64,000 bases of DNA from Candidatus Altimarinota bacterium (GTDB lineage Bacteria; Patescibacteriota; Gracilibacteria; CAIRYL01; GCA-016699755): positions 480,001-544,000 of the forward strand of contig OY760935.1 in the NCBI GenBank assembly GCA_963664295.1, read 5' to 3'. This document shows positions 2,481 through 14,858 of the stretch, piece by piece; position 1 is the first letter of the stretch; every line of letters begins with the position of its first letter. The position numbers and the translations under genes were made by a program. The notes beneath the pieces were generated by a model. It saw only the letters and a list, made by a program, of their open reading frames with translations. It was not told the origin of the DNA and did no database searches.

Positions 2481-2594
2481 ATTTTTTATTTATTTTTCTA
2501 TTTATTTTAGCATTTTTATAAATTTTTTGCAAGGGGGTGAGGCGACCGCTTTATTAGGCGTGAGGTCGCAGAGCCGAGTCAAGTGCGCAAATCA

Positions 2595-2635
2595 ATTTAA
2601 AAAATATTCATGCTTTGCATGAATCTTTTTTAAAT
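2595..2635 (-). terminator. Hairpin directly 3' of the tRNA-Pro CCA
   Basis: atttaaaaaatattcatgc-ttt-gcatgaatcttttttaaat, 19-bp arms with 1 mismatch. Confidence 0.6.
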
Positions 2636-2711
2636 GGTCGGGGCAGCAGGACTCGAACCTGCGACCTCACGGTCCCAAACCGCGCACTCTAGCCAACTGA
2701 GCTATGCCCCG
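2635..2711 (-). tRNA. tRNA-Pro(TGG)
   Basis: CGGGGCATAGCTCAGTTGGCTAGAGTGCGCGGTTTGGGACCGTGAGGTCGCAGGTTCGAGTCCTGCTGCCCCGACCA; full cloverleaf, loop TT-TGG-GA, encoded CCA. Confidence 0.97.
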
Positions 2712-2717
2712 ATGATG

Positions 2718-2966
2718 TTAAAAATCTTTACTGTCCTCCAAAATCTTTTTTAAAAACTCTCTGCCTTTACCTGATTTTAAAAACTTTTCTCTTTTCATTG
2801 CCTCTCCTCTGCTACTTACCTCCTCACAATATACCAATTTCCAAGGGCCTTTCCCAGTTGTCCAACGATTACTACCATTATTGTGAATATCAATGCGTCG
2901 ATCAATATCTTTTGTAATACCTTTATAAAGAATTCCTGCCTGATTTTTAATAACGTAAACGAACAT
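2718..2966 (-). CDS. Small GIY-YIG nuclease (SLX1-like/UPF0213 type), copy 1
   Basis: FVYVI...LYKGIT.D..RR...HN.G....T..KGPWKLVY.E......A..REKFLKSGKGR pattern. Confidence 0.9.
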   Translation of the reverse strand: MFVYVIKNQAGILYKGITKDIDRRIDIHNNGSNRWTTGKGPWKLVYCEEVSSRGEAMKREKFLKSGKGREFLKKILEDSKDF

Positions 2967-2974
2967 AAAAAGTA

Positions 2975-3032
2975 AACCTGCGACCTCATCCGCCTAAGGC
3001 GGACGCACTCTAGCCAACTGAGCTATGCCCCG
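2975..3032 (-). pseudogene. 5' tRNA-Pro fragment with palindrome-substituted anticodon arm
   Basis: Identical to the tRNA from its 5' end to GCAGGTT, except 13 nt of the anticodon arm are replaced by TCCGCCTTAGGCGGA (2989-3003); lacks the 3' T-stem and acceptor strand. Confidence 0.9.
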
Positions 3033-3038
3033 ATGATG

Positions 3039-3287
3039 TTAAAAATCTTTACTGTCCTCCAAAATCTTTTTTAAAAACTCTCTGCCTTTACCTGATTTTA
3101 AAAACTTTTCTCTTTTCATTGCCTCTCCTCTGCTACTTACCTCCTCACAATATACCAATTTCCAAGGGCCTTTCCCAGTTGTCCAACGATTACTACCATT
3201 ATTGTGAATATCAATGCGTCGATCAATATCTTTTGTAATACCTTTATAAAGAATTCCTGCCTGATTTTTAATAACGTAAACGAACAT
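3039..3287 (-). CDS. Small GIY-YIG nuclease, copy 2 (identical to copy 1)
   Basis: Same 82-aa translation as 2718-2966. Confidence 0.9.
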   Translation of the reverse strand: MFVYVIKNQAGILYKGITKDIDRRIDIHNNGSNRWTTGKGPWKLVYCEEVSSRGEAMKREKFLKSGKGREFLKKILEDSKDF

Positions 3288-3295
3288 AAAAAGTA

Positions 3296-3353
3296 AACCT
3301 GCGACCTCATCCGCCTAAGGCGGACGCACTCTAGCCAACTGAGCTATGCCCCG
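3296..3353 (-). pseudogene. 5' tRNA-Pro fragment with palindrome, copy 2
   Basis: Identical to 2975-3032; palindrome at 3310-3324. Confidence 0.9.
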
Positions 3354-3376
3354 ATGATGTTAAAAATCTTTACAAG

Positions 3377-3426
3377 CTCATCCACCACCTAAGGCGGACG
3401 CATTTTACCCAACCAAGCTATGCCCG
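3377..3426 (-). pseudogene. Degenerate third tRNA-Pro fragment
   Basis: ctcatccaccacctaaggcggacgcattttacccaaccaagctatgcccg aligns to the other fragments with several substitutions and indels. Confidence 0.75.
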
Positions 3427-6376: not shown

Positions 6377-7201
6377 TTAATGCACTGTTTGCTTTTGGGT
6401 GGCAAAAATCTCCTCAGCTATTTTAATGTGTTCCTCAAAAAGACCTGCTTCATCTGGAGTAATAACTTCTGGTTTTCCATATTGCAAATGCTTAACCGGA
6501 ACTATAAAGGCTGGATTATCACCTTGAAATAATACTTTATGATGCAAAAGAGGATGATCAAAATTAGTTATATTACCTAAAGCATTGCGCACTCCACTAA
6601 CCTGCCACCTAAATAAATCTAATATATCAGATGGTAAACGACTGTCTGCAAAATAAATAACTTGATCTAACTGATCAGGTGAAAGCAATTTAATTACCGG
6701 TAAATCTGGGTCATTTTTATCTATCTCAAGTGGTAATTCTTGCAAATTATCACGACATTCATTTGCATTTACAGCTATTGGATCTAATGCCTTTTTTTTA
6801 ATAAAACCTCTATAATAAGGGGCGTCTTCTGGTTGCTCAAAAAAATATTGCATTTTTCCGCCTGTGCCAGATTTTTCCCCTTCAAATATTTTTTTCCAAC
6901 CATGCTGAGGATGATACATTTGTCTTCCTGCTTGATATTGAGCAATGGCCATTAAAAGCCTTTTGAAATAATGAATTAACAATTGTTGATATTCTGCGTT
7001 AAATATTTCAGAAGGCACTAATTCTTCAGCTTTTTCAACTCTTTCTTTTTCTTGATAAAGTGCTTTTTTTAAACCATTTTCATTTAAAGCAGTTCTTAAC
7101 ATTGCTTCTCTTTCTTTGTCTGCCTCCTGACCTGATAAAAAACTACTTCTATGATCTTTAATGATCATTCCTGACTTTTCGCTTTTATATTCTGCGGACA
7201 T
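6377..7201 (-). CDS. Hypothetical protein
   Basis: 274-aa ORF with an upstream promoter-like element. Confidence 0.7.
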   Translation of the reverse strand: MSAEYKSEKSGMIIKDHRSSFLSGQEADKEREAMLRTALNENGLKKALYQEKERVEKAEELVPSEIFNAEYQQLLIHYFKRLLMAIAQYQAGRQMYHPQHGWKKIFEGEKSGTGGKMQYFFEQPEDAPYYRGFIKKKALDPIAVNANECRDNLQELPLEIDKNDPDLPVIKLLSPDQLDQVIYFADSRLPSDILDLFRWQVSGVRNALGNITNFDHPLLHHKVLFQGDNPAFIVPVKHLQYGKPEVITPDEAGLFEEHIKIAEEIFATQKQTVH

Positions 7202-7344: not shown

Positions 7345-8547
7345 ATGAAAAACAACCAATCTGACACCAAGATTATTGCAACAGAAACTGATGCGGAATC
7401 TGTAGCACGACAGCTTGATCAATTATCAGAAACTGACCAATCCCAAGCTTTAAAATTAATTATTACAAGTCATAAAGATCAAGTATGTTCCTTATTAGAC
7501 TCTGTACCGCAAGAAAGTCCAAAAAAAGAGCTTCCTTCTCTGCATATAAAGGACGACATTATGAATGATGAAGTTGCGAGCATGATAGAAGAATGTTTTA
7601 AAAAAGTAGGGGGCGAAGTAACAAACTTAGGGCTTGACCAATATAACAATCCATTCATAGAAGGTGAAAACCTATGGGTGCCTCAGATAACACAAGGAAG
7701 CATATCGAAAATTACTTTTGTAGAGGGATTGTTAAGAATAGAAGGAGAAGGTCTTCAGCTTGCAAGTCATTATAAAGATCTAGTTGCAGGAGGCGATATT
7801 AAAAGTGTTATGTTTGCATATAATAGAGATACATTATTTGAAGTAAGCGGGACAGAACTTGTTCTTGGTAGCAAATTTGATAAAGCAGTGAAAAATGGAA
7901 AAGTGACTAGACTAGAAAATAGTTCAAAAGAGTATGAGATAACAGGAGATAATATCGAGTTAGATGAAAGATATAAAACCTTTGTTAGAAAAGGAAATCT
8001 TAAAAGTGTTAGATTTAACAAGAGCGACGGCTTGGATTTATCAAGCATTGAAAGCATGGAAGACGATCACATCCAACTTGGAGATATGTACAAAGAACAA
8101 GTAAAAGGCGATATTCATTATGTCGGCTTTCATGAAAAGAAACATGTAATATCAATGTCTATTAATGACGAAAGTCCAACTAGACACAGTTCATATCAAG
8201 CCTTGCATCATGTAAGCGGAAGCCATCTTCTCTTAGGAAACGCTTATCAAAATTGCACAGCCAATATTCCTACTAGAGGAAATATAACCACTTTGTTCTT
8301 TGACGATGATTTGAGTCAAAATCTTACCACGGTATTCATGAAAAATTGGCAAAAGGAAGACTTTTCTGATTATGTTGTTCCCGAAGATGTTGATTCAAAT
8401 AATAGCGTTCTTATTAGGTTTGATGATGATGGAGAAGTTAACACAGTTGAAGCCCATATGCTTTCTGATAATCTAAACCCAAAAAAATTAGAACCAAAAA
8501 AACCTTCAAAAATCTCAAGGCTTTTATCTGCATTCTCCAGGTCCTAA
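7345..8547 (+). CDS. Hypothetical protein with degenerate internal repeats
   Basis: 400-aa ORF; TTGACA at 7295 upstream; recurring IxGxxLxLxxxYKxxVxxGxIxxVxF pattern. Confidence 0.7.
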   Translation: MKNNQSDTKIIATETDAESVARQLDQLSETDQSQALKLIITSHKDQVCSLLDSVPQESPKKELPSLHIKDDIMNDEVASMIEECFKKVGGEVTNLGLDQYNNPFIEGENLWVPQITQGSISKITFVEGLLRIEGEGLQLASHYKDLVAGGDIKSVMFAYNRDTLFEVSGTELVLGSKFDKAVKNGKVTRLENSSKEYEITGDNIELDERYKTFVRKGNLKSVRFNKSDGLDLSSIESMEDDHIQLGDMYKEQVKGDIHYVGFHEKKHVISMSINDESPTRHSSYQALHHVSGSHLLLGNAYQNCTANIPTRGNITTLFFDDDLSQNLTTVFMKNWQKEDFSDYVVPEDVDSNNSVLIRFDDDGEVNTVEAHMLSDNLNPKKLEPKKPSKISRLLSAFSRS

Positions 8548-8609: not shown

Positions 8610-8654
8610 CATTTGAAAAACAATACTGACTTTCATGGTATTGTTTTTTAAATG
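8610..8654 (-). terminator. Hairpin 3' of the duplicated tRNA-Arg 3' end
   Basis: catttgaaaaacaatac...gtattgttttttaaatg, 17-bp arms with 1 mismatch. Confidence 0.55.
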
Positions 8655-8761
8655 GCGTCCCCGACAGGATGCTCATCCGCCTAATCGGCGGATAAGGCCT
8701 TCTGCGCTCGCTCGGAATTTTGCGCAAGCACAAATTCACTCGCTCGCTTGAGTGTCGAACC
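8653..8761 (-). repeat. Duplicated tRNA-Arg 3' end interrupted in the T-loop by an 84-nt palindromic insert
   Basis: tggcgtccccgacaggat (8653-8670) = 8826-8843; tcgaacc resumes at 8755; insert 8671-8754 contains atccgcc-taatc-ggcggat. Confidence 0.8.
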
Positions 8762-8825
8762 AGGTTCTCGGTCCTGTGGAAACATAAAAAACAACCTGAT
8801 GACTGCGTCATCAGAACATTTTTTA

Positions 8826-8902
8826 TGGCGTCCCCGACAGGATTCGAACCTGTGACCTCTGGCTCCGCAAGCCAACGCTCTATCCAGCTAAGCTACGGGG
8901 AC
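8826..8902 (-). tRNA. tRNA-Arg(GCG)
   Basis: GTCCCCGTAGCTTAGCTGGATAGAGCGTTGGCTTGCGGAGCCAGAGGTCACAGGTTCGAATCCTGTCGGGGACGCCA; loop TT-GCG-GA. Confidence 0.95.
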
Positions 8903-12576: not shown

Positions 12577-13746
12577 ATGGCTGATGCAAGCTTAAAATCA
12601 TTTTTTTCCGGCAAAAGACCAGAAAATTCAGGCGCTTCTATGTCTCAAGAAGTTAATCCTGAAATTTCACCTGCTGCTGTTATTCGCGTTTTGGGCGTTG
12701 GTGGCTCAGGAGGCAATGCGGTTAATCGCATGATCGAAGCTGGAATAGAAGGAGTTGAATTTATTGCTATCAATACTGATGCTCAGGCTTTATGGCATTC
12801 TAATGCTGGCAAAAAGATTAATATTGGCAAAGGCACTACAAGAGGTCTTGGCGCTGGTTCTAATCCTGAAACTGGTAAAAAATCAGCTGAAGAATCATCT
12901 GAGGAAATCAGATCTATCCTAGAAGGATCTGATATGGTATTTATTACATGTGGACTTGGAGGTGGCACTGGCACAGGCGGTGCTCCTGTTATTGCTGAAG
13001 TTGCTAGAGAACTAGGCATACTTACTATTGGTGTTGTGACTAGACCTTTCTCATTTGAGGGTGCCCGCAGAAGACAACAATCTTTAGATGGTTTTAATGC
13101 ACTTAAAGACAAAGTTGATACTTTGATTACTATTCCTAATGATAAAATTCTTTCTATTATTGATAAAAAAACACCTTTAACAGAAGCTTTTACTGTTGTT
13201 GATGATGTGCTTAGGCAAGGTGTTCAAGGTATTTCTGAGCTTATAACTACTCATGGTCTTATTAACGTGGACTTTGCTGATGTAAAATCTATTATGCAAA
13301 ATGCTGGCTCTGCTTTAATGGGAATTGGTTTTGGTAGCGGTGAAAACAGAGCGGTTGAGGCTGCTCGTGCTGCTATTGACTCCCCTCTTTTGGAAATGTC
13401 TATCGAAGGAGCCAAAGGAATTCTCTTTAATATAACTGGTGGTAATGATATGTCTATGTTTGAAGTTGATGAAGCTGCAAGAATTATTACAGAAAGTTCC
13501 GACCCTGATGCTAATATCATTTTTGGTGCTGTTGTTAATAACAATTTCACAGGAGAAATTAAAGTCACTGTAATTGCTACTGGCTTTGAAACTGAACTAC
13601 CTGAAAAAACAGAAAGTTCTGGCAATACTGCTGTTAATAGGCTTGGTGGAGCACGCGCTTTTAGTGGTAATCCTCAGCGTAACCAACCTCAATCTGAAGA
13701 AGATCTTGAGGTTCCTGCTTTCATGAGAAAAACACTTAATAAATAA
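12577..13746 (+). CDS. ftsZ: Cell division protein FtsZ
   Basis: [12 protein letters not shown] tubulin signature, INVDFADV, C-terminal LEVPAFMRK. Confidence 0.99.
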
Positions 13747-13784
13747 TTAAAACACAAAGTGATTTTTTAAAAAGGACTTAATTA

Positions 13785-14858
13785 TTAGTCCTTTTTATTT
13801 TTCCCAAAAAATAAACTGGCCAAAAAAGTACTAATTGGCACAGCAAAAAGCAAAGAGGTACTACCAACAAGAGTTCTTATTACTTCTTCTGAGATTGCTT
13901 CTGAATTTAAAACAAGCCACCAAGGCAACTGGTCAGCAGAAAAAAGAAGCAAAAGAGGTAAAGAAGCTCCTGCATAAGCCAAGGCTAATGTGTTTATTAA
14001 AGAAAATATATGCTCATTACCAATTTTAAAACCACTCTTGATAAGTTCTTTGGTTCCCAAATTATTGTTGGCTTTTTTGAGTTCATAAATAGCTGTTGTT
14101 TGCGTAGTAGTCACATCATCTAAAACCCCCAAAGCACCAATTAAAATTCCTAAAAACAAAATACCCTGAAAATTAAGCTCTGAAAAAACACCCATCTGTG
14201 CATAAAAAGCACTTTCTGAGCCCATGCCAAACAAAAAGCAAATTTCCACAGCAAAAAAAGCAAAAGCAACAGATAAAATCAAAGTAATTAAAGTACTTAA
14301 AAGCGCAATAAGGGTAGTTTTTTTAAAACCATGAGAAATTAAAATTGAGCTTATTGCCATCAAAGGCAAAGACAAAGCACCTACAAAGAAAGTACTTTTG
14401 CCGTTTGCCACCAAAGGCACAATTAAAAAAACAATAAAAGCAATGGTCACCAAAAGACCAATTAAAGCTTTTAAACCTTTACCTCTAGTTAAAATCAGGG
14501 CAAAAATAACAAAAACTAAAAACACAAAAACAATTCTCGAAAAACGATATCTTTCAGCATAAAAATATTGATAAGTATTATCTTCATTTTTTATTATTTC
14601 AATCACTATCGCGTCTCCTTTTTTTAATATTTTTTCTGATTCTGATTCATAAAAATTACTACCAAGTTCAATAGTGATAATTTTACCTTCGGAACTATTA
14701 GGAGGATAAAGAGCTTTAATTATTTTTCCTTCTTGTGTATCAGCAAGCTCTGTCACTACTGCTTTTTCATAAATACTTGTGTTTTCTGCAAAAACACTAG
14801 GGAAAAAAGCTATTATAAACAATAAGCCCAAAAGAATATTTTTTATATATTTCATCAA
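13785..14858 (-). CDS. YibE/F family membrane protein
   Basis: GALGVLDDVTTTQ, NTLALAYAGASLPLLL, EEVIRTLVGS, VPIST. Confidence 0.9.
   Translation of the reverse strand: MMKYIKNILLGLLFIIAFFPSVFAENTSIYEKAVVTELADTQEGKIIKALYPPNSSEGKIITIELGSNFYESESEKILKKGDAIVIEIIKNEDNTYQYFYAERYRFSRIVFVFLVFVIFALILTRGKGLKALIGLLVTIAFIVFLIVPLVANGKSTFFVGALSLPLMAISSILISHGFKKTTLIALLSTLITLILSVAFAFFAVEICFLFGMGSESAFYAQMGVFSELNFQGILFLGILIGALGVLDDVTTTQTTAIYELKKANNNLGTKELIKSGFKIGNEHIFSLINTLALAYAGASLPLLLLFSADQLPWWLVLNSEAISEEVIRTLVGSTSLLFAVPISTFLASLFFGKNKKD

Follow-up and report, generated by a model that had tools for sequence, protein, structure and literature searches.

A divergent repeat, apparently of the TLR/RtT type, downstream of tRNA-Arg(GCG) in a Candidatus Altimarinota genome

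The tRNA-Arg(GCG) locus

The window, which is the whole stretch of 64,000 nucleotides that was analysed, belongs to a closed genome of 1,215,430 bp with 33.5% GC. On its minus strand an intact tRNA-Arg(GCG) gene with an encoded CCA end was called by ARAGORN (8826..8902; 67.6 bits with the Rfam tRNA model), and in an Rfam scan of the locus this tRNA alone passed. The gene is followed by a unit of 173 bp, measured from CCA to CCA, that opens with a terminator-like hairpin with a C[GCA]G triloop and a single T-T mismatch (8785..8825, minus strand). It continues with a decayed inverted copy of the 3' end of tRNA-Arg(GCG) itself (8763..8784, minus strand). This left arm is complementary to that 3' end as far as nt 59, terminates with the junction motif GAGAACC and is predicted to pair with positions 8670-8657 of the duplicate described below and with GGTTC. 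A pattern match located GGTTCGA, a direct copy of the 5' side of the T-loop, at 8755..8761 (minus strand). After an insert of exactly 84 nt (8754-8671, minus strand) the tRNA sequence resumes with an exact 18-nt duplicate (18/18) of tRNA nt 59-76 (8653..8670, minus strand), the hallmark of the tRNA-linked repeats (TLRs) of Escherichia coli. Positions 8692..8761 (minus strand) form a core that agrees in 70/70 nt with the unit at tRNA-Ser(GGA) and in which purine-rich GAGCGAGC arms flank an AT-rich hairpin. The tip of the last hairpin is a TCCGCC-N5-GGCGGA palindrome (8676..8692, strandless); sister units have other tips there. TTTAAAAAA and a second terminator-like hairpin lie 3' of the duplicated CCA (8610..8652, minus strand). 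The unit is adjoined by a 400-aa ORF (7345-8547, plus strand) and a 274-aa ORF (6377-7201, minus strand), both without a Pfam match.

A preliminary description had read the locus as a tRNA 3' part split in the T-loop, with 84 nt between GGTTCGA and the duplicate, the palindrome in the insert (8692-8676) and, as behind tRNA-Pro, TTTAAAAAA plus a hairpin after the duplicated CCA (8652-8610); this was confirmed on the minus strand. The second hairpin and the ctcgctcg repeats that it listed are likewise present, but had been quoted from the plus strand, and the first hairpin (8825-8785) and the decayed inverted copy (8784-8763) had been overlooked. When 8610-8830 was folded as RNA, a z-score of -7.4 was obtained and 0/200 shuffles folded equally well, whereas the inner 136 nt folded as DNA were not significant (z = -1.25, 20/200 shuffles). 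In the predicted fold a 12-bp helix is followed by an unpaired GCCA.

Related units in the genome

A survey of the tRNA loci, proposed with the preliminary description, recovered T-loop-split 3' duplicates at 13/37 tRNA genes, with 12-22 matching nt situated 133-172 nt downstream, and at least 13 gene-less, hairpin-rich units are found behind tRNAs in this genome. Simpler arrays of 80-85 bp are present at tRNA-His, Glu and Phe and truncated units at tRNA-Ser(TGA), tRNA-Pro and the tmRNA, and other tRNAs carry tandem unit copies. The core of the Arg unit occurs in seven copies behind six tRNAs (Arg, three Ser, Gln and Gly) with 94-100% identity over 67 nt, all of them within tRNA trailers. The left parts of these core-sharing units, consisting of the hairpin and the inverted arm, are only 49-78% identical. 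The Arg unit itself is a mosaic, being identical to the Gln(TTG) unit over its 23-nt junction and to the Ser(GGA) unit over the 70 nt mentioned above.

The match between arms and tRNAs was assessed with 32 motif-selected units, reduced to 20 non-redundant ones in which eight near-identical prophage loci were collapsed to one. The left arm was complementary to its own tRNA at 86/140 variable positions, compared with 54 ± 5 when the tRNAs were swapped (0/5000 shuffles); the inner hairpin had served as the selection motif and therefore gives no independent evidence. Covariation is seen at nt 59, where G59 is found with C in L354 and L358 and C59 with G in L365 and, by eye, in L133. Non-Watson-Crick positions make up 62/200 of the inverted arm, divided into nine sense-strand wobbles, 16 antisense wobbles and 37 others. 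C[G/A-N-A]G triloops, which favour DNA hairpins, were present in the first hairpin of 17/34 unit trailers as opposed to 5/49 other trailers; this may instead be a property of the local terminators. In other genomes, 109/124 listed matches to the core motif had no called tRNA within 500 bp and 15/124 had one, each figure being at least the number among the matches listed and 40/120 loci having short flanks.

Further repeats were noticed around tRNA genes. A second unit family (Met, Ala, Lys, Val, iMet and tmRNA) has an AT-rich loop motif, approximately YTAATWA, between the inverted and direct copies; in this genome (G000:C1) it lies at 13710-13887, 119123-119285, 557444-557601, 1131756-1132078 and 419239-419413 and in the tmRNA trailer, and it is present in genome G004, too. 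Behind tRNA-Pro (window 2530-2634, minus strand) a triloop hairpin, a 13-nt inverted copy of variable loop and T-stem, an AT-rich loop and a short direct copy follow each other, and this trailer is a truncated second-family unit. Tandem repeats of 81-135 bp, made of tRNA 5' ends, lie upstream of Leu(GAG), Ser(TGA), iMet, Tyr, Ser(GGA), Ser(GCT) and Gly(GCC), and several of them have an inverted copy as a cap; they mirror the 3' units. More palindromic modules are located exactly 3' of the CCA of various tRNAs or duplicates (G000:C1 97564, 97717, 97870, 135598, 606352 and 748040), in G004 as well (L049, L062, L065, L222, L234). At L091 and L098 the GA-rich core motif is found inside duplicated tRNA 5' parts, on the opposite strand.

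Comparison with the E. coli repeats

The four units at tyrT/tyrV of E. coli K-12 consist of a trailer, an inverted T-arm, GAGAA(G/C)C, a hairpin, GGTTCG, an insert and a 19-nt duplicate. Earlier papers on these repeats are reportedly those of Egan and Landy in 1978, Bosl and Kersten in 1991 and 1994 and Rudd in 1999, as cited in PMC8144298, PMC3318445, PMC7542023 and bioRxiv 2024.07.17.603846. According to PMC8144298, knowledge of TLRs in E. coli goes back to 1978; they are defined by 18-19 bp of identity and number 22 at ten loci. The 18-nt duplicate of the Arg unit falls within this definition. The unit also has the RtT layout, with an inverted T-arm copy, a GAGAA(C/G)C...GGTTCG hairpin, an insert and a duplicate beginning at nt 58-59, and the order GGAT-GAGAA(C/G)C...GGTTCG...ATCC is common to it and the tyrT/tyrV repeats. 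Both lie directly 3' of the gene, end in a copy of 18-19 nt, show tandem expansion and are of similar length (173 bp versus 178 bp for the RtT repeat). They differ in that the Arg core is shared by six tRNA species and in that the Arg unit has an A/T-flanked triloop hairpin in front, a type that the E. coli units lack, as well as the palindrome tip. In sequence, too, the Arg core is too far off for a match to the Rfam model RF00391 (RtT, cut-off 45 bits), which did not detect the Arg unit and exceeded the cut-off in 0/151 genomes of the class. Its only two weak matches in the class are units of this layout (21.5-27.9 bits), compared with 133-138 bits for the E. coli units.

Judged by its layout, the feature at tRNA-Arg(GCG) is a divergent tRNA-linked repeat of the TLR/RtT type. 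In a literature search, with subscription papers mostly outside its scope, no description was found of such repeats outside enterobacteria or of the inverted arm with its junction. The kind of repeat is thus known from E. coli, and its occurrence outside enterobacteria, the inverted arm and the junction are apparently undescribed. C4 antisense RNA was considered as a relative and dismissed, as there was no Rfam match and rtT is absent from the text and eight supplements of PMC2864571. A likeness of the GA junction to hammerhead or kink-turn motifs, noticed by eye, was dropped because the bases that would have to form the core are paired with nt 59-60, and because the insert lies on the wrong strand.

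The predicted fold raises the possibility that the unit is a functional tRNA-like RNA, which would be read through from the tRNA gene, cut at both CCA ends and, with a 12-bp acceptor/T-like helix and an NCCA tail, serve as a decoy or as an aid in tRNA 3' processing. The freed GCCA would suit such a product, as would the purine-rich internal loops, which are found on the sense strand only. The E. coli annotation gives rttR as an RNA of 171 nt whose end coincides with that of the first repeat. According to PMC8144298, rRNA-linked TLRs are transcribed, processed and bound by Hfq and CsrA. The same paper reports that no function of TLRs is known and that the phenotype ascribed to rtT has been withdrawn. 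In addition, the mismatches in the outer helix are not skewed towards sense-strand G-U pairs (9 versus 16 of the antisense type), a strong hairpin precedes the unit, and units are distributed patchily among tRNAs and genomes. A functional RNA is therefore regarded as unlikely.

Relatives and island ends

A BLAST search with the Arg unit against 40 relatives gave 0/40 matches, and relatives were therefore compared by layout. Since tRNA-Arg(GCG) lacks a unit in 8/8 matched relatives, the Arg unit was gained in this lineage. In a metagenome scan with the upstream gene five loci were obtained (30-56% identity), in none of which a tRNA-Arg(GCG) was called. A relative in sequencing run X4 has kept the right half and the palindrome and diverges at 8652, just past the duplicated CCA. 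In the draft genome G004 (99% complete) 31 tRNAs were inspected; four of the units there are complete and five are partial or cut by a contig end. In the closed genome G086, clear units were seen at Ala(GGC), at Trp and at two Ser genes, and four further genes carry degenerate units. Several units of our genome sit at the same tRNAs in G004, which argues that most are old and inherited. Among database records of phages the E. coli unit matched one, a contig from Salmonella with an RtT annotation; among plasmid records it matched 28, none predicted to be mobile, and the one inspected was the chromosomal purU/tyrT locus. At tRNA-Ala(GGC) of G004 (L228), the inverted arm equals the present tRNA over 16 nt and the direct copy corresponds to another Ala allele.

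Units with the same junction were found in many genomes of the class, at GTDB loci and on viral contigs. This recurrence bears on the idea that the units are neutral by-products, in which fold-back or template-switch repair at the tRNA cloverleaf would generate a direct-inverted-direct triplication and REP-like palindromes would drop in later, with no dedicated element involved. Such an origin would fit other partial tRNA duplicates in this genome that are also capped by inverted D-arm, anticodon-arm or 5' pieces, and the core, a REP-like motif that elsewhere lies mostly away from tRNAs. However, the TC-to-GA change opposite nt 57-58 together with an 18-20-nt duplicate recurs in E. coli, at prophage-flanking loci and in this class, and random repair should not repeat one junction, with the caveat that the units were picked by motif. 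We consider a neutral by-product rather unlikely.

A tRNA 3'-end duplicate downstream of an intact gene is also what integrase islands and prophages leave, and 18 nt is within the size range of island att cores. The Arg unit could accordingly be a plain attR scar, an option that had been raised in the preliminary description. The two copies are, however, separated by 155 bp that contain no gene, neither integrase nor cargo, the crossover region is interrupted by the split T-loop, and one core is shared by six tRNAs. True att fragments, seen where prophages end (L287, L289 and kin) and in G086 at an island of 5.5 kb (L349), retain the entire T-loop, and a separate RtT-type unit lies downstream of them. 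An att scar is thus highly improbable. The trailer after tRNA-Ser is near-identical in two families of the class (L339, Ser(GCT) of G086; L239, Ser(TGA) of G004; L349), which suggests, from sequence, a shared island end.

The GIY-YIG nuclease and its palindrome

The comparison system in the window, at 2635..3324, starts with a tRNA-Pro gene (2635-2711, minus strand). Ahead of it (window 2635-3400) lie GIY-YIG cassettes of 321 bp in tandem, with a third, decayed copy further upstream. They encode two identical 82-aa GIY-YIG ORFs (PF01541; 2718-2966 and 3039-3287, minus strand), each with a 5' tRNA copy in front that carries the palindrome (2989-3003 and 3310-3324, minus strand). Matches to this nuclease were obtained in 124/151 genomes of the class. 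The best 30 loci all have a same-strand tRNA, mostly within approximately 500 bp, and many have partial tRNA copies broken by the palindrome, so that the GIY-YIG/palindrome tRNA cassette system is real. A second, YhbQ-like GIY-YIG ORF is flanked by REP-like GTCATT repeats. The preliminary description held that both tRNAs of the window have copies broken in the T-loop and carry the palindrome. This is correct for the palindrome, but the lesion at tRNA-Pro is a different one: the 5' copies merely stop at the T-loop, and the palindrome replaces the anticodon arm.

The palindrome pattern has three matches in the window versus 0 in 100 shuffles. Its eight copies in this genome comprise two at the nuclease, one in the Arg unit and at least three at the tips of REP-like repeats. 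REP-like GTCATT repeats with this tip were seen at G000:C1 3493, 435315, 759350 and about 622400-623000. Only one of the seven core copies, that of the Arg unit, carries the palindrome; one more is degenerate, and the slot holds other tips in sister units. Across the 151 genomes, where kin are not independent and a 23S rRNA match was removed by eye, at least four palindromes were found in 20/32 genomes with a GIY-YIG hit of E <= 1e-12, in 24/92 with weaker hits and in 1/27 with none. At least two junction-motif matches were found in 3/32, 9/92 and 3/27, respectively, counts that include false matches (several of 20 inspected regions were coding) and miss variant units.

Hence, of the co-occurrence expected in the preliminary description, the part concerning the palindrome stood, and the junction motif showed no enrichment in genomes with the nuclease. 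That description had proposed a non-autonomous element that is either a partner mobilised by the GIY-YIG nuclease or a scar left by it. Its support lies in the palindrome being present at both places, in its abundance tracking the nuclease, and in the same-strand tRNAs at the best 30 loci. On the other side, the palindrome is also found in REP-like repeats and is confined to one core copy, and units exist without this cassette in G004, G086 and E. coli K-12. In G004 the sole PF01541 hit lies in a 694-aa frame and there are 0 palindromes; in G086 the nuclease search gave no match, and PF01541 hit a frame of 762 aa and, within a REP-like pair, a relic of 74 aa that looks broken, with one more hit below the cut-off. 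A tRNA-adjacent small GIY-YIG gene thus does not accompany the units in these two genomes (G004 being a draft, and kin not independent) or in E. coli; the nuclease could have been lost after the units formed. The link had been staked on genomes that lack the nuclease, and the units of G004 and G086 largely undo it. For the unit as a whole, a specific partner or scar of the nuclease is very unlikely, and the notion of a non-autonomous element holds up. Because palindrome counts track the nuclease and the junction motif does not, and because sister tips differ, the palindrome is an exchangeable tip that goes along with the nuclease family, and the unit does not. The 17-nt tip of the Arg unit may come from the GIY-YIG system and was probably picked up secondarily, as a likely later replacement of one hairpin tip.

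Discussion

Our preferred, tentative reading, to which we assign a probability of about 0.45 from the sequence comparisons, takes the Arg unit, with its RtT/TLR layout, for a selfish DNA element that has no gene and is moved by an enzyme in trans. In a single strand, the inverted arm would pair with the duplicate and rebuild the T-arm/acceptor duplex, from which the insert would loop out at the T-loop, with tandem G-A pairs at the junction. This rebuilt fold would be the substrate by which the unit, inserted by an enzyme acting in trans, enters at the tRNA 3' end and leaves the gene intact. Cores may then be exchanged between units through recombination, and the duplicate could seed tandem expansion. 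We lean towards a DNA element because of the DNA-type triloops and because the REP-like core lies elsewhere mostly away from tRNAs. Against it stand the inverted arm, which is often decayed, and the Logan contigs of sequencing runs, in which no joints, empty sites or excised or circular forms were found (contigs only, from which absence cannot be shown). In this genome, Y1 transposase (PF01797) gave 0 matches and no reverse transcriptase was found, and the one tyrosine recombinase, a 306-aa frame of XerC/D size, is far from the Arg locus.

Such an element would resemble REP/REPIN sequences, which are gene-less, hairpin-rich and multi-copy and presumably moved in trans; the core motif is likewise widespread between genes. 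It differs in that the arms of the units are matched to each target tRNA, and the Y1 transposase that would be cognate to REPs with a RAYT is missing, as stated above. Integron attC sites and the attP of CTX-phi are folded single-strand recombination sites. By analogy, a duplex site might be rebuilt by the inverted arm, from which the insert would loop out and which would have 2-3 nt of identity beside one stem, with the difference that no recombinase is linked to the Arg unit. A wider generalisation, which we consider doubtful, is that TLR/RtT repeats are retargetable mini-elements found across phyla, whose inverted arm guides them to the T-arm and whose arms are rewritten for each target, so that a single core could spread to many tRNA genes, with a nuclease or recombinase of the host or of a visitor in trans, possibly small GIY-YIGs. 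If true, this would explain repeats that have been unexplained since 1978.

Two easily confused tRNA parasites are told apart here, RtT-type units and GIY-YIG/palindrome cassettes. For annotation this means that such tRNA 3' duplicates should not be labelled as att sites of islands. With units at 13/37 tRNAs in a 1.2-Mb genome, one core at six targets and covarying arms, the origin of TLRs becomes testable, including those of E. coli.
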